DNA from: an uncultured Pseudomonadota bacterium
Lineage (GTDB): Bacteria > Vulcanimicrobiota > Vulcanimicrobiia > Eremiobacterales > Eremiobacteraceae
DNA: 64,000 nt
Reading direction: 5' to 3'
NCBI GenBank assembly: GCA_963736005.1
Contig: CAVTNB010000001.1
Span: forward strand, 832,001 to 896,000
Part shown: in pieces, positions 30,893 through 39,473 of the stretch
Numbering within the stretch: the first letter of the stretch is position 1
Layout: the number at the start of each line of letters is the position of its first letter
Made by a program: the position numbers and the translations under genes
Notes under the pieces: model-generated
What the model was told of the DNA's origin: nothing
The model's database searches: none
What the model saw: the letters and a program-made list of their open reading frames with translations, nothing else

Positions 30893-31639
30893 TTACCAGG
30901 GAATAATTTGTTGATCCCGCCAGAAGAGGCCTGTCTGAGAAGACGGCGGACGCGCTGCTAAAAACAACGCCGTTTTCGCGGCATTTTCAGGTTCGATTGG
31001 TGCGCCGCTCCCACCCATATCCGTCTTCACCCACCCGGGATCGAATGCATCGACCATGATCTGACGATCGCGCACGTCCGCGGCCAGCAGCTGCGTGTAC
31101 ATGTTCAAGCCTACTTTACTCATGCAATACGCCGGCCCGTACCCATCTGATTCTCCCGCCAATTGTCCCATGGACGATGACACGTTGATGATGCGGCCGC
31201 CTGCGCGCAACAGCGGCACGAACGCGTTGCACATGCTGATGGGTCCCAGCAGATTGACGTTGAGGGTGCGCGCTAGAACCAAGGGATCGATCTGCGAAGG
31301 GCGCATGGCTCTGTCTTCATCGAGGAAGATGCCGGCATTGTTGACGAGCACGTCGATGACGGGATGCCGCTGCACGAGATCGAGAACGAGCATGGATATC
31401 TGGGCGGGCTCGGTGACATCGGCAACGCCGAAGTCCGCCTGGTAGCCGGCTTTGGAGAGCTCGCTTGCGATCTGTTCGCCCACTGCTCGGTCGCGAACAA
31501 CGAGTACGCTGCACGCGCCGGCCTTTGCAAAAACGGTGGCAATTGCTTTGCCGATACCGCGCCCGGCGCCGGTGATGACTGCGGTCTTGCCGCGGAGTGC
31601 ATCGGGATCGATGTGCGCATTCGCTGCGATGGTCTTCAT
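30893..31639 (-). CDS. SDR family oxidoreductase
   Basis: TGAGRGIG, NNAG, YCMSK, PGWVKTDMG. Confidence 0.9.
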   Translation of the reverse strand: MKTIAANAHIDPDALRGKTAVITGAGRGIGKAIATVFAKAGACSVLVVRDRAVGEQIASELSKAGYQADFGVADVTEPAQISMLVLDLVQRHPVIDVLVNNAGIFLDEDRAMRPSQIDPLVLARTLNVNLLGPISMCNAFVPLLRAGGRIINVSSSMGQLAGESDGYGPAYCMSKVGLNMYTQLLAADVRDRQIMVDAFDPGWVKTDMGGSGAPIEPENAAKTALFLAARPPSSQTGLFWRDQQIIPW

Positions 31640-31681
31640 GGGCGCAAGAATTCGTGCCGGCGCAGCGAATGACCCGCGCGT

Positions 31682-33655
31682 ATGAGCGAAGACAAACAGG
31701 CGATTGAGGCTCTTTTTGCCGAGCACCGCACGTTTCCGCCGAGCGAGGAATTTGCGCGCCACGCCAGACTGAGAGATCCGCAGATTTACGCGCGGGCGGC
31801 TGCCGACTTCGAAAAATTCTGGGAGGGCGAAGCGGAGTGTCTCGATTGGTTCGAGCGCTGGCGCAAAGTTTTGGTCTGGGATGATAAGTCTAAAGTCGCT
31901 CGTTGGTTTGATGGTGGCAAGATCAACGTTTCGTATAATTGCTTGGACCGTCATGTCGCTGCCGGTCACGGCAAGCAAGTCGCATACTATTGGGAAGGCG
32001 AGCCGGGCGACAGCCTCGTCCTAACGTACGAGGATCTGCTGCGCGAAACGTGCCGACTCTCAAACGCGCTCAAGGAGTTGGGGATCAAGCGAGGCGACCG
32101 GGTCGCGATTTACATGGGCATGGTGCCGCAATTGCCGGCCGCGCTGCTCGCGTGCTCGCGCCTTGGCGCTATCCATTCAGTCGTGTTCGGAGGTTTTTCG
32201 GCGGAGAGCTTGCGCGACCGGATCAACGACGGCGAGTGCAAGGTGCTGATCACGCAGGACCAGTCCTGGCGCCGTGGCGGGAAGGTTCTTCTAAAGAACA
32301 TCGCTGACGAGGCGTTACGAGGCGCGGAGTGCGTCGAAAAAGTCATTGTGCTGCGGCGCGTCGGCGACCCGGTGGATTGGCAGCCGGAACGAGACGTTTG
32401 GTACCACGACATTGTCGCTCGCCAAAGCGACCAGTGCGAACCGGAGCGCATGGATGCTGAGGACGTGCTCTACATTTTATATTCGAGCGGCACGACGGCC
32501 AAGCCTAAAGGGATCGTGCACACGACCGGCGGTTACTTGACCGGCGTCGCATCCACCCATCGCAACATCTTCGATATTAAAGAAGATTCCGACATCTTTT
32601 GGTGCACGGCGGATATCGGATGGGTGACCGGCCATTCCTACATTGTCTACGCACCGCTTGCGAACAGGACGACAAGCGTCATCTACGAGGGCACCCCAGA
32701 TTTTCCAGACAAAGATCGCTTCTGGGCCGTTGTCGAAAAATATAAGGTGACGATCCTGTACACGGCGCCAACGGCGATTCGGACATTCATGAAATGGGGC
32801 ACCGAGTATCCTGCGCGCCACGACATGTCATCGTTGCGTTTGCTGGGCAGCGTGGGCGAGCCCATCAATCCCGAGGCATGGATTTGGTACCAGCAACACA
32901 TCGGCGGAGGCCGCTGCCCCGTGGTGGATACATGGTGGCAGACGGAGACGGGCATGATCTTGATTTCACCTCTGCCGGGAATCACCGCCACAAAACCGGG
33001 GTCTGCAACATTTCCCTATCCTGGTGTTTTCGCGGACGTCGTGAACGGCGACGGTCAGCCCGTGCCGCTTGGCGGCGGCGGCTTCGTCGTCATCACCAAA
33101 CCTTGGCCGGCCATGCTGCGTACCCTGTGGAAGTCGCACGACCGCTACTTGCAAACCTACTGGAGCCGGTTTCCAAAGCAAGGCTATTATTTTCCAGCCG
33201 ACGGTTGCAAGCGTGATGAGGACGGATACTACTGGCTCCTTGGCCGCGTTGACGACGTCATGAACGTTTCCGGCCATCGCATCTCGACCACAGAAGTCGA
33301 GAGCGCCTTTGTCGATCACCCAAAAGTTGCCGAAGCCGCGGTCGTTTCAAAGAAAGACGACATCACGGGTGAAGCGATTGCAGCGTTCGTCACCCTCAAG
33401 GGCGGCGGCATTGGCTCGCAAACCGATGCCGACGAACTGCGCAAGCATGTTGCTTCGAAGATCGGCGGATTCGCGCGACCCAAATTTGTCACGTTTACCC
33501 CAGAGCTCCCCAAGACCAGATCGGGGAAGATCATGCGGCGCCTCCTGCGAGATGTCATGGAAAACCGGCCGCTCGGCGATACGACCACGCTCGCCGACGC
33601 AACGGTCGTCAAGAATCTCGCCGAAGCCGCACAATCATCGAAGGCGGAGGAGTAG
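31682..33655 (+). CDS. acs: acetyl-CoA synthetase
   Basis: YSSGTTAKPKG, DIGWVTGHSY, VDTWWQTETG, LPKTRSGKIMRR. Confidence 0.96.
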   Translation: MSEDKQAIEALFAEHRTFPPSEEFARHARLRDPQIYARAAADFEKFWEGEAECLDWFERWRKVLVWDDKSKVARWFDGGKINVSYNCLDRHVAAGHGKQVAYYWEGEPGDSLVLTYEDLLRETCRLSNALKELGIKRGDRVAIYMGMVPQLPAALLACSRLGAIHSVVFGGFSAESLRDRINDGECKVLITQDQSWRRGGKVLLKNIADEALRGAECVEKVIVLRRVGDPVDWQPERDVWYHDIVARQSDQCEPERMDAEDVLYILYSSGTTAKPKGIVHTTGGYLTGVASTHRNIFDIKEDSDIFWCTADIGWVTGHSYIVYAPLANRTTSVIYEGTPDFPDKDRFWAVVEKYKVTILYTAPTAIRTFMKWGTEYPARHDMSSLRLLGSVGEPINPEAWIWYQQHIGGGRCPVVDTWWQTETGMILISPLPGITATKPGSATFPYPGVFADVVNGDGQPVPLGGGGFVVITKPWPAMLRTLWKSHDRYLQTYWSRFPKQGYYFPADGCKRDEDGYYWLLGRVDDVMNVSGHRISTTEVESAFVDHPKVAEAAVVSKKDDITGEAIAAFVTLKGGGIGSQTDADELRKHVASKIGGFARPKFVTFTPELPKTRSGKIMRRLLRDVMENRPLGDTTTLADATVVKNLAEAAQSSKAEE

Positions 33656-33659
33656 GAAG

Positions 33660-35555
33660 TTAGGCGCCGGCGGCGCTGAGGATGAGATCGGTGCCAAGCC
33701 CAGCTGCAAACCCAAGGAATATCCCAACCGTGGCGAGTTCTCGGAACCCAAACCTTGCCCCGACTTTCGTCATCTCTGAAATCACGTAAATGATTGCTCC
33801 AGCCGCGAGCGTTAAGAAGAGCACGGACAGCACTGGCGACACGAAGTGGTAGCCGATGACCGTTCCCAAAAACGTCGGGCCGCCGCCAATGAGACCAAGC
33901 CGGACGATCGTTGAGACCTTCGCGCCCCCCGAACCCGCCAGCGGCGCCGCGATCCCAAAACCTTCTGTCATGTTGTGCAGCCCAAACCCGATGATAAGCA
34001 GCAACGCGAGCTGAATGGCTCCTGTGGCTGCGGATTGGCCGATTGCCAATCCTTCACTGAAGTTATGCAAGCCAATGCCGGAGGCGATCATCGTTGCCAG
34101 GCCCAGGGGACTTAAGTTACCGAGCGAGGTCTTTGCAAGAAACGACCTCGAGAAAAAGACAAGGCTGAGCAAACCGACGGCAAGACCGCCGAGATAGACA
34201 AACAACAACCCCAAGAATTGCGCTCTGGGTGCACCGAGCGCGATGTTGCGGAGGGCGCTCTCGACCGGATCGCTCGCCTGGCGCAAGATGTCGAACAGTA
34301 AGAAGAACAAGATCCCAATTGCGATCGCGTTGAGAAACGCAATGCCTTTGGTTGAGAGATTCTTCATCGTCGCGAACGGCAAGCCGAAAAAGATGGTCAA
34401 GCCAGCGATCGCGCCAAGAATGTAAACGGCAATCGGCGCAAGTGGAGGGCCACCTCCCCCTGAGCCGCCTTCACCACCGCCCCCGGCCGGCGCCATCACC
34501 ATGACATCCTGGGTCGCCATGTCCTTCAATCTGTTTGGTGCGTTCTCGTATTGAATCGCCGTGACGAGACCGCCCGGACCGACCGCGCCATTCATCATGT
34601 GATCGAGCACGTGGCAATGCACCATCCACGTACCCGGCTTTGCATTTGCAACGAACGCAATGTCGCGCGTCTCTCCCGGACCGATGCTCAAAGTGACCAT
34701 CAATTGTCTGTTGGCGGGCGCCACGGTCTGACCGTCTATCGCCACCACCGCAAATCTGTGGCCGTGCAAGTGCATGGTGTGAAACTCGGTACCGCTGATG
34801 TTGATCTCGCGGATGCGCACGTGTTGGCCGCTGCGAACCATGAATGGTTTGGTGAGCGGATAACTCTTGCCGTTGATGCTAAAGTAGTTTTCTGCGTCGG
34901 ACACGATGCGCCAGGACGACAAAAGCATGAGGTAGTCGTGGTCGTAGCGTTCTTTTGGTTTCGCTTCGTCAACGACAACGGCGCCATAGAGACCGCGATC
35001 GAGCTGGTTGAGATCATCGTAGTGGGTGTGATAGATGTATGTGCCCGGGGTACTCGCCGTAAAGTTGTACACGAATGACTGGCCAGGGCCGACCGCGTTT
35101 TGGCTCATGCCGGGAACGCCATCCATGTCTGCGTCGACGGGCAGCCCATGCCAGTGAATTGTCGTTGGCTCAGGCAAGTTGTTGACCAGCACGACCTGGA
35201 CGCGGTCGCCTTCGCGAACATGAATTGTCGGGCCAGGGACGGTTCCGTCAAAAGTCCAGGCCTGTTGAACGACTCCAGGAGCGACTTCCCATGGCGCCAC
35301 CTCCGCGTACAGGCAAAATGTTTTCACCTTCGCCTGAGAAACTGGCGGTAGCGAGGGAAGCAGATCGAAATCGGCTTTCGCTTGAGCCTCGGCGCTCTCC
35401 CGAACCGACGGTTGCTGCAGACAACGCGCGCTTGCGCTGTCTGACCCGGTGGCATGGGAAGGTTGCATCGGCATCGAGAGCGCCGCGGCACGCAAGGTCA
35501 CAAGGAATGCCAACGCGAGCGGGAGGACCATTAAACGAAGAGCATTGATTCTCAC
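33660..35555 (-). CDS. fusion of secreted two-domain multicopper oxidase and ZIP-family metal transporter
   Basis: Signal peptide; HWHG, YHTH, HTMHLHGH, HCHVLDH; Gly linker; ZIP motifs GLHNFSEG and GLHNMTEG in one open frame. Confidence 0.9.
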   Translation of the reverse strand: MRINALRLMVLPLALAFLVTLRAAALSMPMQPSHATGSDSASARCLQQPSVRESAEAQAKADFDLLPSLPPVSQAKVKTFCLYAEVAPWEVAPGVVQQAWTFDGTVPGPTIHVREGDRVQVVLVNNLPEPTTIHWHGLPVDADMDGVPGMSQNAVGPGQSFVYNFTASTPGTYIYHTHYDDLNQLDRGLYGAVVVDEAKPKERYDHDYLMLLSSWRIVSDAENYFSINGKSYPLTKPFMVRSGQHVRIREINISGTEFHTMHLHGHRFAVVAIDGQTVAPANRQLMVTLSIGPGETRDIAFVANAKPGTWMVHCHVLDHMMNGAVGPGGLVTAIQYENAPNRLKDMATQDVMVMAPAGGGGEGGSGGGGPPLAPIAVYILGAIAGLTIFFGLPFATMKNLSTKGIAFLNAIAIGILFFLLFDILRQASDPVESALRNIALGAPRAQFLGLLFVYLGGLAVGLLSLVFFSRSFLAKTSLGNLSPLGLATMIASGIGLHNFSEGLAIGQSAATGAIQLALLLIIGFGLHNMTEGFGIAAPLAGSGGAKVSTIVRLGLIGGGPTFLGTVIGYHFVSPVLSVLFLTLAAGAIIYVISEMTKVGARFGFRELATVGIFLGFAAGLGTDLILSAAGA

Positions 35556-36301
35556 TTCACCGACCGCATCTTGGCGTGCTCGGCCTCAGACTTCTTGACC
35601 GGCGCGACGAGAATGTCACTCGCCAGCTGCGAGCTGATCGTGTGTTCTTCACCGCCCACACAAATGGTCAACAACCCCGCTGCGCGCTCACGCCGCGCGA
35701 CGCGTAGTCTCACCCCCGGCCGCAATCCAACATCCGACAGAAATCTCAAGAGCTCTGGGATGTCGTGCTTCACTTCGAGGATAGACGCTTCCGTGTTGAG
35801 CGGCAGATCGAAAAGATCGACGGCCTCTTCGTGATGCCAAAGCGTGCCGTCAGCATGCGGAATCGGATGCCCGTGTGGGCAGGTGGCGGGGTGGTTGAGA
35901 AACTTTGCCAAGTGCTCTTCGACTGCTGGAGAAATTGCATGCTCGAGTCGGCACGCCTCATTGCCCGCAACTTCCCACGACATGCCAAGACAATCCACGA
36001 GCAGCCGTTCGGCTAACCGTTGCCGCCGGAGAATAACGGCGCCGATTCGCGCGCCCTTGGGAGTGGGCACGACGCCGTGGCGTCCTTCATGCATGACATA
36101 GCCGTCGGCGTCAAGCCGCTTGAGCATCGCCGAAACTGACGCTGGAGAAATCGCCAACTCCTGAGCAACAGCCGATGTCGAAACAGGTTCCTCACCCTCG
36201 TACAAACGCACGATGGATTTAAGGTACATCTCGACGTTTGGGCTGATCTCAGGTTCGTCGGCTTCGGGAGACGGCGGAAACTTCAGGGCGGAATTGTTCA
36301 T
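35552..36301 (-). CDS. DtxR/MntR/IdeR-family metal-dependent repressor with FeoA-like SH3 domain
   Basis: EMYLKSI, ISPASVSAMLKRL, EACRLEHAIS, CPHGHPIP, GLRPG; 4-bp overlap with the fusion gene. Confidence 0.92.
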   Translation of the reverse strand: MNNSALKFPPSPEADEPEISPNVEMYLKSIVRLYEGEEPVSTSAVAQELAISPASVSAMLKRLDADGYVMHEGRHGVVPTPKGARIGAVILRRQRLAERLLVDCLGMSWEVAGNEACRLEHAISPAVEEHLAKFLNHPATCPHGHPIPHADGTLWHHEEAVDLFDLPLNTEASILEVKHDIPELLRFLSDVGLRPGVRLRVARRERAAGLLTICVGGEEHTISSQLASDILVAPVKKSEAEHAKMRSVK

Positions 36302-36323
36302 CGACGGCAGCTCCGACGGGTGT

Positions 36324-36341
36324 AATTAGGCTTGCCTTATT
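36324..36341. promoter_or_regulatory. putative DtxR/MntR-family operator AATTAGGC-TT-GCCTTATT
   Basis: Near-perfect palindrome containing TTAGG, 22 bp upstream of the repressor ATG; second TTAGGC at 36348. Confidence 0.6.
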
Positions 36342-36517
36342 CTTCACTTAGGCACGTCAATTCTTCTAAATCAGGGCTGCCACAACGTTGCGGGTTGAGG
36401 GCGCAGATTCAGGATCGAGCCGTTGACGCGGGTCACATTGCGGGACGCAGGTTAGCGAGGCGCAACTCGGGCAATAAGTGGGTCGTTGAACTAATGCGGA
36501 GGTAACCACGCATTTAG

Positions 36518-36988
36518 ATGAAGCTAAAGATTATTGCCGGCGTGCTAGTCGCGCTGCTGTTTGTGTCGATGACACCGGGGCCGCGGGCTTTAGCCGATGG
36601 GGCAGCGAGCACGCGAAACATTCTGCTCGGGATTGGCGCGGCGGCAGGCACGCTCCTTATCATTAATCACAACAAGCAGGTGCACGCCAAATATGCCCAA
36701 GATGCCGCGGCGCAGGCTGCGCTCGCCAATCAACGCAACGATGCCGAAGCCGCCTATCAGTCAGAGGTTCGTGCGTACAAACATCAAGTTGCCGTTAGCG
36801 ACAATCTCCAGAAAGAGGTTGCACTCCAGGACGCTACTATCCAGCAGCAAAAAAAGCAGCTAGCGGAGGTAGGGGTATCCGTGCAGCCAGTTGCGCAAGC
36901 ACCGGTCATCCATGCCGGAAGCTCGCACTCAGCGCCGGCGAAGATGGCGATGAGTCAGATGGTTTCGTACGGTTGGGGAACGCTCTAG
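36518..36988 (+). CDS. hypothetical secreted coiled-coil protein
   Basis: GGAGG upstream, signal peptide ending ALA, Gln/Ala-rich helix. Confidence 0.7.
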   Translation: MKLKIIAGVLVALLFVSMTPGPRALADGAASTRNILLGIGAAAGTLLIINHNKQVHAKYAQDAAAQAALANQRNDAEAAYQSEVRAYKHQVAVSDNLQKEVALQDATIQQQKKQLAEVGVSVQPVAQAPVIHAGSSHSAPAKMAMSQMVSYGWGTL

Positions 36989-37068: not shown

Positions 37069-37467
37069 ATGGGGATGAAAAGAGTATGGGGTGCCGCCTG
37101 TGCGGTACTGCTTCTCGGTGTTTTTAGTTTGTCGGGATGCGGCAGCAAGGGCGGGGCGGCCAACACGGAAACGAACCTTACAGATCAGGTTACCCGTGCG
37201 GTGTACAATAACGACATGGCCGGAGTAACTTCAAACTTCAACAGCGATCTGGCTCCTCAGGTCACGCGAGCGAGTGTCGGTACGCTTTCCGACAAGATGC
37301 ACGCGCTTGGTAACTACCAAGGCCTTACTGAGGCGGCGACGGACGTCCCATCGCGACGCTATACGTTCGATGCGAAGTTCGATAACGGTGATATGACCGT
37401 CCTCGTCCGCCTTGACACAAATGGGAAGATCGCGGCATATCGCATAGTCCCAGGCGCGCCTCACTAA
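37069..37467 (+). CDS. hypothetical lipoprotein
   Basis: Lipobox LSGC. Confidence 0.7.
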   Translation: MGMKRVWGAACAVLLLGVFSLSGCGSKGGAANTETNLTDQVTRAVYNNDMAGVTSNFNSDLAPQVTRASVGTLSDKMHALGNYQGLTEAATDVPSRRYTFDAKFDNGDMTVLVRLDTNGKIAAYRIVPGAPH

Positions 37468-37470
37468 AAT

Positions 37471-37615
37471 GTAGGGGGCGATTGGAAAATCGCCCCTTCG
37501 TCTTGTGTAGCGGCGACTGTAAAGTCACCCTTTCTTTTGCGTAGCGGGCGACTGTCAAGCGCCATGTAGGGGGCGATTGGAAAATCGCCCCTTAGCAGCG
37601 GACCTTTAGGTCCGC
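37471..37615 (+). repeat. mosaic REP cluster A-C-C-A-B
   Basis: Family A at 37471-37496 and 37566-37591; family C at 37507-37530 and 37541-37563; family B at 37593-37615. Confidence 0.88.
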
Positions 37616-38616
37616 TCAGCGACGAACGCCTCGAGTTCCTTCACCCAGCCCTGCTTCTGCTCATCGGCGGCAAACGACATTCGCAAACTATTGCGCGCGA
37701 GATTTATGACATCTTCGCGCGCAAGGCCGAGGGCCATGGCCTGTTCGAACTCATCGAGAATTGTAGAACCGAAAAACGCTGGATCATCGCTGCTCAGCGT
37801 CGCAGAGATGCCCCGCGCCAGGAAAGCTTTCAAGGGATGCTCGGCCTCTTGATTCCAAACACCTGTGACACGATTGCTCGCAAGACAGCAATCGATGCCA
37901 ACTTGGCGCTGGGCGATCAATCGCATAACAGCATCCTCTTCCGCCGCCGCGACGCCATGGCCAATGCGCTCCGCACCTAAAATCTCGATTGCATCCGAAA
38001 CGCTTTGGGGTCCGGCCGCTTCACCGGCGTGTGCGGTTCTTCGCAAACCGAGTTTCCCCGCGCGATCAAAAGACTTGAAGAAGTCGCGCGCCGGAAAATT
38101 CCGTTCGTCTCCACCTAGCCCCACTCCGACTACGCCGTAGGCCATGCATTGTTGTGCGAGGTCGACGTCAGCCAAGGCCGCGTCATCACCAAGGTTGCGG
38201 ACCATGTCGAAGATGAGCAGGCTTGACACCCCGTGGATTGCCTTCGCTTGCTCGGCAGCTGCATATATGGCCTGAACGATGCCGGGAAGATCTGCGTGCT
38301 CATGAAAATGGCGAATGGTTGCGGGTGAGAAGAAAAATTCCACGTGACGCACGCCGTGTTGCGCGCTCTTGCCCAGATACTCTTGGGTAATGTCCGCAAA
38401 GTCTTCCGGCTCGCGCATCGTTTTGGCCACGCCAAGAAACGCGTGCAGAAACGATTCGAAGTCAGCGCATTGGAATAAAGAGGCAATGTCCGAGGGTAGA
38501 GTGACACCGTTGCGCTGCGCGATACGCTCGTAAGCTTGCGGCGAAACCGTTCCTTCTAAATGAACGTGAAGCTCAGCTTTGGGAAGGTCGCGTAGCCAAG
38601 GACGAAGATCCCTCAC
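37606..38616 (-). CDS. add: adenosine/adenine deaminase
   Basis: PKAELHVHLEG, AHAGE, ERIGHG, SSDDPAFF. Confidence 0.9.
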   Translation of the reverse strand: MRDLRPWLRDLPKAELHVHLEGTVSPQAYERIAQRNGVTLPSDIASLFQCADFESFLHAFLGVAKTMREPEDFADITQEYLGKSAQHGVRHVEFFFSPATIRHFHEHADLPGIVQAIYAAAEQAKAIHGVSSLLIFDMVRNLGDDAALADVDLAQQCMAYGVVGVGLGGDERNFPARDFFKSFDRAGKLGLRRTAHAGEAAGPQSVSDAIEILGAERIGHGVAAAEEDAVMRLIAQRQVGIDCCLASNRVTGVWNQEAEHPLKAFLARGISATLSSDDPAFFGSTILDEFEQAMALGLAREDVINLARNSLRMSFAADEQKQGWVKELEAFVAERT

Positions 38617-39473
38617 GTACGCTTATACCCGCGTAAGTAGGCGAGCGTCTGCTGATCGATTGTGCCGTCGCTGCGTACGCGATCTTCAAGATTTTCGCGA
38701 TGCATGAAATTGACCAGCGCTGCCGCGGCGCCAGCATCGTAGGTTGATCCCGCCTGCAACTCGCCCGCTTGGACAAGCAAACCGCAAATTTCGGATCCCA
38801 GAGCGGGAGTTATCAGCAATATCTCTTCAGGTGCCGGTTTAAAGAAATAGAGTTTGTGCAGCTCGAGAATGCGGGCGAGCTCTTCTATTGGTTCGGGGTG
38901 ATCGTCCACACGCAAGTCGACATATCGATCGTTGAAGCCGCTGTAGCCACCCCCCGGTTTTGTGATGTAGAGTGCGGCGGATTGCTTGCCCCGTCGATCG
39001 CCACCGGCAGCCTGTCCGGCTCGAAGCGCGGCAATCAGTCGGTCCGCCAAGTGGCCTCTCGAGCCGAGTAATGCGTCGGCCATTTCTCTCACGACAGCTG
39101 GGCCAGCGAGAATGTTCCCTTGCGCGGCGAAGTTGTGCTGCGAGATGCCGCCTGCCCAATCCATGCAGCCGCTGCCTGTGTACGTTGCGGATCGCCCCTG
39201 CGCGTCTACGATGCCGACCTGGCGCTGGGCCGCTTCAGCATCGCTTGATGTCAGAATGTCAATGACGTCTTGAGGATCGTGACCGCCTTGCAAGAGTTCC
39301 AAGCCACGAGGTCCGTAGCTCGTATTTGCCCACGCCTGCGTTGCGATCGCCCCAACACCACCTATTGCCCAAGGCACGGCGGAACCAACGGCAAGAAATT
39401 TAGATTGCACGGCAACGCCGAGTTCGTCTGATGCATCGTCAAACGCGACAATGGAAAATGTCGAAGCCCCCAC
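38613..39473 (-). CDS. DUF1028 family Ntn-hydrolase-like protein
   Basis: TFSIVA, GVAVQSKFLAVG, GGDRRGKQSAAL, DLRVDDHPEPIEEL. Confidence 0.9.
   Translation of the reverse strand: MGASTFSIVAFDDASDELGVAVQSKFLAVGSAVPWAIGGVGAIATQAWANTSYGPRGLELLQGGHDPQDVIDILTSSDAEAAQRQVGIVDAQGRSATYTGSGCMDWAGGISQHNFAAQGNILAGPAVVREMADALLGSRGHLADRLIAALRAGQAAGGDRRGKQSAALYITKPGGGYSGFNDRYVDLRVDDHPEPIEELARILELHKLYFFKPAPEEILLITPALGSEICGLLVQAGELQAGSTYDAGAAAALVNFMHRENLEDRVRSDGTIDQQTLAYLRGYKRT

Follow-up and report, generated by a model that had tools for sequence, protein, structure and literature searches.

The window, a 64,000-nucleotide (nt) stretch of an uncultured bacterium of the Eremiobacteraceae (contig CAVTNB010000001.1, positions 832,001 to 896,000), carries on its reverse strand two overlapping genes: one for a DtxR/IdeR-family repressor, and one whose single product joins a two-domain multicopper oxidase (MCO) to a ZIP permease. 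A preliminary description of this DNA, made from its letters, had recognised an uninterrupted frame of 631 amino acids (aa) with a signal peptide, two cupredoxin domains, a linker and a ZIP domain with both HNxxEG motifs, together with a DtxR-family gene overlapping its start and a TTAGG palindrome upstream. All of these are in the sequence; the overlap is of 4 nt, the TGA of the regulator gene and the GTG of the fusion gene sharing GTGA, and the palindrome lies at 36326-36339. The parts of the locus are the following.

33660..35555, (-) strand: MCO-ZIP fusion gene, a single uninterrupted open reading frame (ORF) with a GTG start, 631 aa plus stop
35552..36301, (-) strand: DtxR/IdeR-family repressor gene, an ORF of 249 aa
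35475..35555, (-) strand: predicted signal peptide, about aa 1-27 of the fusion, with a basic n-region, a hydrophobic core and AAA-LS, as read from the sequence
34521..35342, (-) strand: two-domain multicopper oxidase, aa 72-345, from Pfam
34440..34520, (-) strand: flexible linker, aa 346-372, rich in Gly/Ala/Ser/Pro and of low predicted local distance difference test score (pLDDT)
33663..34439, (-) strand: ZIP permease domain, aa 373-631, about eight transmembrane (TM) helices, from profiles, alignment to PDB chains and an AlphaFold2 (AF2) model
36322..36343, (-) strand: operator, an imperfect palindrome with the family consensus CGAATTAGGCAAGCCTAATTCG
36344..36357, (-) strand: possible weaker second operator half-site GCCTAA, spotted by eye

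The oxidase-ZIP chain and its distribution

That the two modules really are joined is clear from independent DNA and from the breadth of the family. A 24.6-kb contig assembled independently from run X1, of a related strain, aligns over 33600-36394 without gaps and with 98 substitutions, and shows no stop, frameshift or indel across 34400-34560, the linker stretch singled out in the preliminary description; 37 of the 39 listed differences inside the gene fall at third codon positions, and these synonymous-type changes are taken as a sign of selection. Two further runs, X2 and X3, cover this part of the window only as short pieces. Distribution was tallied over 401 genomes, one per species, of the phylum (Eremiobacterota/Vulcanimicrobiota by record titles; at most 12 of those counted are flagged unpublished). 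Full-length matches to the fusion (E <= 1e-100) occur in 208 of them, and in 141 of the 247 that are at least 90% complete. By family, the fusion is present in 28 of 29 genomes of the window's own family (f1), in 177 of 297 of a sister family (f2), in 2 of 5 of a third (f3) and in 0 of 69 from other families. An assembly artefact or frameshift at the linker is ruled out by the gapless X1 contig together with these full-length matches. A word-indexed search gave a similar picture of the domain architecture: at least 120 clusters at 52-90% identity, most of them full-length, carrying the oxidase families and in most cases Zip on the same chain, with names that include 'multicopper oxidase domain-containing protein [Candidatus Eremiobacteraeota]' and 'zinc transporter ZupT'; the reverse order of modules also exists, as described below.

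The homologues are not split into two genes. One candidate for a natural split form, in genome G173 (L162, C2:1762952-1766611), has the gene in two frames; the break falls inside MCO domain 2, not in the linker, and we therefore regard this copy as a pseudogene or a sequencing error. Other irregular copies were met in G352 (C14:34618-36488, a two-piece match with one internal TAA) and in G279 (L031), where regulator and fusion each match in two pieces. Two genomes with weaker matches, G011 and G232, have an MCO only and no fusion.

The oxidase half is recognised by Pfam as Cu-oxidase_3 (aa 89-198, 2.3e-40) followed by Cu-oxidase_2 (aa 222-325, 5e-30), and its copper motifs are those first noted: H134-W-H136 and H176-T-H178, with no Cys, in domain 1, and H259-T-M-H262-L-H264 and H313-C314-H315-V-L-D-H319 in domain 2. 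The trinuclear-cluster (TNC) ligands are His 134, 136, 176, 178, 262, 264, 313 and 315, in four HxH motifs, and those of the type 1 (T1) copper are His259, Cys314 and His319; all 11 are present in 113-114 of the 114 aligned fusion homologues, and Thr177, at the Cys-less position of the domain 1 HTH, is kept in all 114. Among solved structures the two-domain enzymes 2zwn, 3g5w and 3gdc are nearest, by sequence and by fold alike (against 2zwn, root-mean-square deviation 1.7 Å, target TM 0.79). Two-domain MCOs are named A, B or C by the placement of T1. In the sequence alignment the fusion has HTH in domain 1 and HCH in domain 2 where 2zwn has HCH and HDH, so that T1 copper would be in domain 2 only; 2zwn and 3g5w carry their T1 Cys in domain 1, opposite to the fusion. 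On these residues the oxidase is a two-domain MCO of type B, the class to which the preliminary description had assigned it.

Around the T1 site the family is less uniform. At residue 324, the canonical axial position, the 114 homologues vary (Gly in 30, Asn in 21, Asp in 19, Pro in 13, Ser in 12, Ala in 10), and no axial Met, Leu or Phe is conserved five residues past the last T1 His; Met321, conserved in 105 of the 114, might take its place. The T1 His ligands have acidic neighbours, Glu257 in 112 and Asp318 in all 114 homologues, which are found also in the closest stand-alone MCOs and which may be comparable with the acidic Fe2+-binding residues of Fet3p.

A model of three copies of aa 72-345 suggests how the oxidase may assemble. 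The interaction prediction score from aligned errors (ipSAE) was 0.96 in all three runs, as against 0.01 for the best control; partner pLDDT was 94, the runs agreed in at least 98% of contacts, and H134/H136 of one copy touch H262/H264 of the next. The calibration mark for this score was reached by 20 of 30 proteins solved as same-chain pairs and by 1 of 23 solved as single chains, counts that derive from two copies and other alignments and apply only roughly to the three-copy oxidase. Since two-domain MCO trimers are already among the solved structures, the score may stem from the memory of the model; it shows likeness, not binding.

In the full-length AF2 model (pLDDT 86.6 overall, with about 97 for the oxidase half and about 86 for the ZIP half), the region of the signal peptide forms a helix, 2-25. 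This peptide looks Sec-type; an N-terminal hydrophobic stretch is seen in 105 of the 114 homologues, and a loose RR pattern matches 26 of the 114 N-termini, being too unspecific to tell Sec from Tat. The N-terminal 70 residues are variable in the family. A helical segment modelled with high confidence follows the signal peptide at aa 38-70 (window about 35346-35444) and is partly conserved as AEAQA..DF.LLP.LPP. The linker of the window protein, GGGGEGGSGGGG, has pLDDT below 50 at aa 354-368 and is thus predicted to be disordered; across the 114 homologues it is unconserved in sequence and 25-43 aa long, rich throughout in Gly, Ala, Ser and Pro.

The ZIP half diverges further from the reference profiles. 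Pfam Zip (PF02535) matches aa 487-616 at 27.9 bits (E 1.7e-6), under the gathering cut-off of 35.1 bits, and at 29.5 bits, likewise under it, in the genome search, and NCBIfam ZupT spans aa 378-617 (E 5.3e-10) far below its own cut-off; relatives of the same ZIP subfamily do pass the Pfam cut-off, with for example 38 and 39.9 bits. BbZIP chains in PDB match it (E 2e-7), the metal motifs of TM4 and TM5 aligning. Both ZIP motifs are intact, HNFSEG at aa 497-502 and HNMTEG at aa 527-532, and the metal-site residues H497, N498, E501, H527, N528, E531 and E594 are kept in 113-114 of the 114 homologues. The AF2 model places eight to nine helices between aa 374 and 628.

Regulator and operator

The repressor gene product matches PF01325 (Fe_dep_repress, 65.1 bits), PF02742 (Fe_dep_repr_C, 96.5) and PF04023 (FeoA/SH3-like, 41.4), all above cut-off, and by these profiles is a member of the DtxR/IdeR family with winged helix-turn-helix, metal-binding/dimerisation and SH3-like domains. 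Aligned with IdeR (1fx7), its M25, C117, E120 and H121 correspond to M10, C102, E105 and H106 of the primary metal site; among same-family orthologues the Met is kept in 24 of 24 and the Cys, Glu and His in 25 of 25. The Mn-dependent SloR has Asp and Glu at the first two of these positions in the same alignment output. Met and Cys residues were reportedly found by Guedon and Helmann in 2003 to mark iron selectivity, and the Met/Cys/Glu/His primary site is read as Fe(II)-type. The ancillary site of IdeR, His79/Glu83/His98, is replaced by Gln94/Glu98/Gly113, position 113 being Gly, Ser, Tyr, Ala or Asn in the orthologues.

This gene lies directly upstream of the fusion, on the same strand, in 25 of 25 own-family loci (one cut by a contig end; 22 of 22 without three from unpublished genomes). 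In the sister family no DtxR gene is found within 6 kb of the fusion at any of 20 loci, nor within 1.5 kb at 4 more. The operator behaves otherwise. Its core, T[AT]AGG-N4-CCT[AT]A, which in the window reads TTAGGCTTGCCTTA on the + strand, stands about 25-40 nt before the regulator ATG, and the full 22-nt palindrome (CGAATTAGGCAAGCCTAATTCG) is present 15-75 nt before the ATG in 22 of 24 own-family regulator upstream regions, the two remaining regions having one-mismatch variants. Many upstream regions show in addition a second half-site pattern, ...GCCTAA-N9-TAAGG..., about two helical turns upstream (noted by eye, unscored). Of 24 sister-family loci, one of them from an unpublished genome, 22 have the core palindrome, allowing one mismatch, within about 40 nt of the start of the fused gene, and of the two misses one has almost no upstream DNA; stray sites number only about 3 in about 270 kb of sister-family flanks. 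Because the palindrome persists where there is no adjacent regulator, it belongs to the fused gene and not to the regulator gene. The suggestion that this is a metal-regulated module is thus supported by a conserved operator that tracks the gene.

Within the window's own genome (2.84 Mb, 84% complete) a position-weight model of the operator scores the window site at 31, as against 17.8 for the next locus, and the bare core occurs 4 times where 6.5 occurrences are expected by chance. Since the model finds a single high-scoring site, the regulator appears to control only its own operon.

Sister-family fusions have no conserved neighbours: at 19 of the 20 loci retrieved, 63 flanking ORFs were scanned and none is a metal gene. 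Around the window locus, two small ORFs, predicted to encode secreted or lipoprotein-like products, diverge from the operon: one at 36518-36988 (+) without a family match, the other at 37069-37467 (+) with DUF3887 at 21 bits, below cut-off. The remaining neighbours, in 30893-33655 and 37606-39473, are ordinary: genes for a short-chain dehydrogenase, an acetyl-CoA synthetase (convergent with the fusion gene), an adenosine deaminase and a DUF1028 protein bearing a peptidoglycan-binding domain.

Reverse-order fusions and other oxidase modules

Clustering at 50% leaves just two representatives fused in the order MCO then ZIP. In a second family the ZIP comes first and the MCO last (P0122, P0126, P0298 and P0278-P0297; about 600-670 aa). 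In the three sequences that were read, P0122, P0126 and P0298, the ZIP motifs are complete, and so are the copper motifs of P0122 and P0298, P0126 having Gln for one cluster His. From the fact that both orders of fusion are possible we infer a ZIP topology with both ends outside; with both ends facing outwards, the two orders would give equal topology. We count the reverse-order family as support for a functional linkage of the MCO and ZIP modules.

Control of this second family appears to be of another kind. Complete loci are available from metagenomes at L164:524-2332 and L165:3846-5672, and none of the reverse-order loci has an operator of the TTAGG type. Scored against the 7-1-7 consensus of the Fur box, both complete loci have Fur-box-like sites upstream, of 1 and 2 mismatches: TGATAATGATTTTCA lies 67 nt ahead of the ATG at one locus, and TGATAATGGTTTTCA 164 nt ahead of it at the other. 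Sites with at most two mismatches number 0 in 410 kb of Eremiobacterial loci and 3 in the window's own genome. No member of the family turned up in 5 phylum genomes belonging to other classes, where the matches were MCO-only, or in 201 genomes titled Dormiibacterota (the phylum of locus L110), and an ESM Atlas search for it returned only a Vulcanimicrobiota MCO cluster.

Among stand-alone oxidases the closest are C-terminal modules of surface-anchored proteins, with anchors that include SLH, Cu_amine_oxidN1, DUF4396, DsbD_TM and OEP. In P0204, P0185, P0200, P0131, P0127, P0128 and P0163 such modules are joined to other parts of the envelope: a DUF4396 membrane domain, DsbD_TM, an outer-membrane efflux domain, SLH repeats, Cu_amine_oxidN1 or a beta-propeller.

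Metal, mechanism and known systems

The choice of metal can be approached through the other sensors and transporters of the genome. Three of its genes are of the DtxR family and one is of the Fur family. Apart from the regulator of the fusion, both DtxR paralogues show, at seven aligned positions, Asp, His, Glu, His, Glu, Glu and His, with Asp/Glu at the selectivity positions, and each is followed by an Nramp gene; these Mn-type operons of the genome (G000) lie at C1:435990-438116 (L140) and C1:66600-68535 (L141). The sole Fur-family gene directly follows a gene for an ABC-3 (ZnuB/MntB-type) permease (C3:467424-470771, L136), an arrangement from which it is probably Zur. Mn and Zn thus seem to have sensor-transporter pairs of their own, and the Met/Cys regulator with the MCO-ZIP chain is the remaining one. 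The fused ZIP is the only ZIP of the genome, and a profile search of that genome, at 84% completeness, found no FeoB Gate domain and no FTR1 (PF03239). In the class as a whole (121 genomes: 120 at least 90% complete, and the window's own at 84%), FeoB_C is found in two genomes and FTR1 above cut-off in the same two, G045 and G126, which belong to genus g18 of the sister family and neither of which has the fusion; their DtxR homologue has Glu/Cys at the selectivity positions. Many class genomes have none of the three systems.

Taken together, the regulator residues, the division of labour among the sensors of the genome, the Fur boxes of the reverse-order family and the scarcity of Feo and FTR1 point to iron, and we give about an even chance to the reading of the fusion operon as an iron-repressed, oxidase-coupled ZIP uptake machine. 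The preliminary description had left Fe, Mn and Cu open; the choice is now narrowed towards Fe, by inference and not by proof. The observed architecture, its conservation, the linkage of operator and gene, the residues seen in the regulator and the trimer modelled in silico can be assembled into a scheme. The two genes would form a self-repressed operon for uptake of a metal, most likely iron. When the metal is plentiful, the DtxR/IdeR-type repressor would occupy the TTAGG-N4-CCTAA palindrome or palindromes and shut off both itself and the downstream gene; when it is scarce, the cell would produce the MCO-ZIP chain. The signal peptide would carry the N-terminus of the fusion across the inner membrane, and the two-domain MCO would fold outside, a topology that fits because the natural ZIP N-terminus is also outside. 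The MCO would have to be a homotrimer, since each trinuclear cluster joins domain 1 of one chain to domain 2 of the next, and the flexible linker of 25-43 aa would tie each oxidase to an eight-TM ZIP domain. The ZIP domain would take the metal into the cell while the tethered oxidase, by analogy with Fet3p/Ftr1p, would do redox work on the metal or its ligands at the transporter mouth; candidate reactions are that of a ferroxidase with hand-over to the ZIP, or the oxidation of organic ligands, by which iron would be released or reduced at the entrance. Repression, iron as both signal and cargo, and any catalytic activity enter this scheme as suppositions. A more specific version, an obligate redox-transport machine in which the ZIP takes T1-proximal Fe3+ or the oxidase generates Fe2+ via radicals of phenolic or hydroquinone ligands, we consider unlikely. 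If true, the hand-over of Fe3+ would provide the first trivalent ZIP cargo, and a trimeric oxidase would force three ZIP domains into one complex, solved ZIPs being dimers; as most of the class is without FeoB or FTR1, such a machine could be its main iron route.

A number of points weigh against iron uptake as set out here. To our knowledge ZIPs carry divalent ions and Fe3+ from a ferroxidase is not a ZIP substrate, and the paradox raised in the preliminary description, that oxidising Fe2+ would destroy the substrate of the ZIP, stands. The metal response of the regulator is not confidently readable, because two of the IdeR ancillary ligands are lost; the single target of this protein fits a local sensor and is silent on the metal sensed; and the best regulator homologues of the sister family are unlinked to the fusion, three of the five sampled having Glu instead of Met at the first position. 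The Fur boxes come from two related metagenome contigs. The complementarity with FeoB and FTR1 amounts to a single evolutionary event, because it involves one genus only. The ZIP half is 44-67% identical to stand-alone ZIPs of many lineages, among them Chloroflexota (Ktedonobacter racemifer), Actinomycetota (Amycolatopsis, Nocardia, Rhodococcus, Acidimicrobiia), Peribacteria and Dormiibacterota, and an MCO adjoins these relatives in 0 of 75 loci. Thirteen of the 75 loci have a DtxR-family neighbour, and all 13 of these are Mn-type, with Glu/His and Asp/Glu at the selectivity positions and Met or Cys in none; the ancestral ZIP cargo may therefore be Mn2+, and from the residues of these regulators comes the main evidence against iron. 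In Corynebacterium glutamicum, MntR represses the ZIP gene mntT (Baumgart & Frunzke 2015, as cited in PMC11933003). Finally, the only published analogue, an archaeal MCO1 gene beside a ZIP gene, is mildly responsive to limitation of copper (PMC7785015).

Part of this speaks at the same time for a manganese importer, in which the ZIP would bring in Mn2+ and the oxidase would be an accessory, for instance removing competing Fe2+ or performing Mn redox. The same kind of palindrome lies upstream of about 30 of the 75 stand-alone ZIPs of the subfamily, a ZIP gene under MntR is known from C. glutamicum, as above, and ZIPs are able to import Mn (PMC9334652). We nevertheless hold this to be rather improbable: Met/Cys is kept by 24-25 of 25 orthologues of the linked regulator, two Mn-type regulator-Nramp pairs already exist in the genome, and the reverse-order family has Fur-type boxes. 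Copper acquisition, with the oxidase converting Cu+ to Cu2+ and the ZIP importing Cu2+, would abolish the redox paradox, Cu2+ being divalent, and has been proposed for ammonia-oxidising archaea: the MCO1 and ZIP genes of Nitrososphaera viennensis adjoin and rise mildly under Cu limitation, the mechanism being an unvalidated proposal of the authors (PMC7785015). Neither DtxR-type nor Fur-type regulators are known to sense copper, however; no copper chaperone or Cop genes lie near the fusion in the 63 ORFs of the 19 sister-family loci; and the four Cu needed per chain would be awkward for a system serving copper starvation, so that we rank copper as less probable still.

In two other explanations the oxidase would have a task of its own at the entrance of the permease. 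It might serve as a guard or filter, oxidising Cu+ or excess Fe2+ so as to keep toxic species from entering while the ZIP imports Zn, Mn or Fe2+. ZIPs of bacteria accept a wide variety of substrates (Grass 2005, cited in PMC9334652), and the related MCO modules on SLH, Cu_amine_oxidN1, DUF4396, DsbD_TM and OEP anchors suggest a general role as surface oxidase; the union with one ZIP subfamily in two independent gene orders argues instead for a specific partnership, as does strict co-regulation by one operator, and we find a guard very improbable. The other proposal would make the oxidase a laccase-like enzyme that attacks phenolic or hydroquinone metal ligands of peat and soil at the ZIP mouth. 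It resolves the paradox with no change of ZIP cargo, and agrees with the variable, non-Met axial T1 position of the 114 homologues, laccase-type sites likewise being without axial Met. Wood-decay fungi use laccase to drive Fe3+ reduction through semiquinones. We assign this idea, in which the metal would be freed or semiquinones would reduce Fe3+ to Fe2+, a low probability, equal to that of the guard.

An MCO and a ZIP welded into a single chain, with two independent module orders and retention throughout most of a bacterial class, are strong genomic evidence of joint work, and one gene with one operator offers a handle on what a copper oxidase does for a divalent-ion importer. The iron-uptake reading would also bear on how Eremiobacteria, which abound in acid soils, peat and polar deserts, get iron with neither Feo nor FTR1. 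The regulator and its site make a compact pair of sensor and operator, with a regulon that seems limited to one operon.

The architecture, which the preliminary description did not recognise as characterised, appears to be new: a search of full texts, supplements not covered, found no description of a fused MCO-ZIP or of the Eremiobacterota gene. Nearest to it is the pair NVIE_000600/000590 of N. viennensis, an MCO1 gene and an adjoining gene for a ZIP permease (Reyes et al. 2020, PMC7785015). Like the window protein, this pair comprises a two-domain MCO and a ZIP permease, for which a coupling of oxidation and uptake like that of Fet3/Ftr1 is proposed; unlike it, the archaeal pair consists of two separate genes tied, in a proposal described there as untested, to Cu limitation, whereas the window system is one chain, of a kind found in two gene orders, under DtxR- or Fur-type control. 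The archaeal and bacterial associations of MCO and ZIP are probably independent, since no archaeal record is among the top 80 relatives of the ZIP domain in reference genomes.

Oxidase-coupled metal uptake is established for systems of the Fet3p/Ftr1p type. With yeast Fet3p/Ftr1p and the bacterial EfeUOB/FTR1-type systems, which are induced by lack of iron, the window protein shares an extracytoplasmic MCO coupled to a permease, and with Fet3p the fold of the oxidase (1zpu is a fold match). It differs in that the permease is a ZIP without the RExxE of the FTR1 type, PF03239 not being found in its own genome, and in that the Fet3p oxidase is a three-domain monomer whereas that of the window has two domains, is predicted to trimerise and is covalently fused to its permease. 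The fusion may thus work like Fet3p/Ftr1p yet, its permease being a ZIP, is no member of that group.

In fold and copper ligands the oxidase resembles mgLAC (2zwn), the blue copper oxidase of Nitrosomonas europaea (3g5w) and the small laccases of the SLAC type, and the in-silico model suggests for it the trimer with inter-subunit trinuclear clusters of two-domain MCOs; its T1 placement is that of the SLAC type (type B), unlike 2zwn and 3g5w. None of these enzymes is fused to a transporter, and the window family stands apart also in its variable axial T1 position. The iron box of DtxR/IdeR is 19 bp long. Unlike DtxR and IdeR, the window system has an operator with 4-nt spacing between TTAGG and CCTAA, and a regulator whose ancillary metal site is incomplete. 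It is nevertheless like them, and like the MntR-ZIP system of C. glutamicum (mntT, cg1623), in regulator family and in the TTAGG/CCTAA-type inverted repeat. C. glutamicum provides the precedent for a DtxR-family repressor controlling a ZIP gene (cited in PMC11933003); unlike the target there, that in the window is an oxidase-ZIP fusion, and the regulon appears to be one operon.

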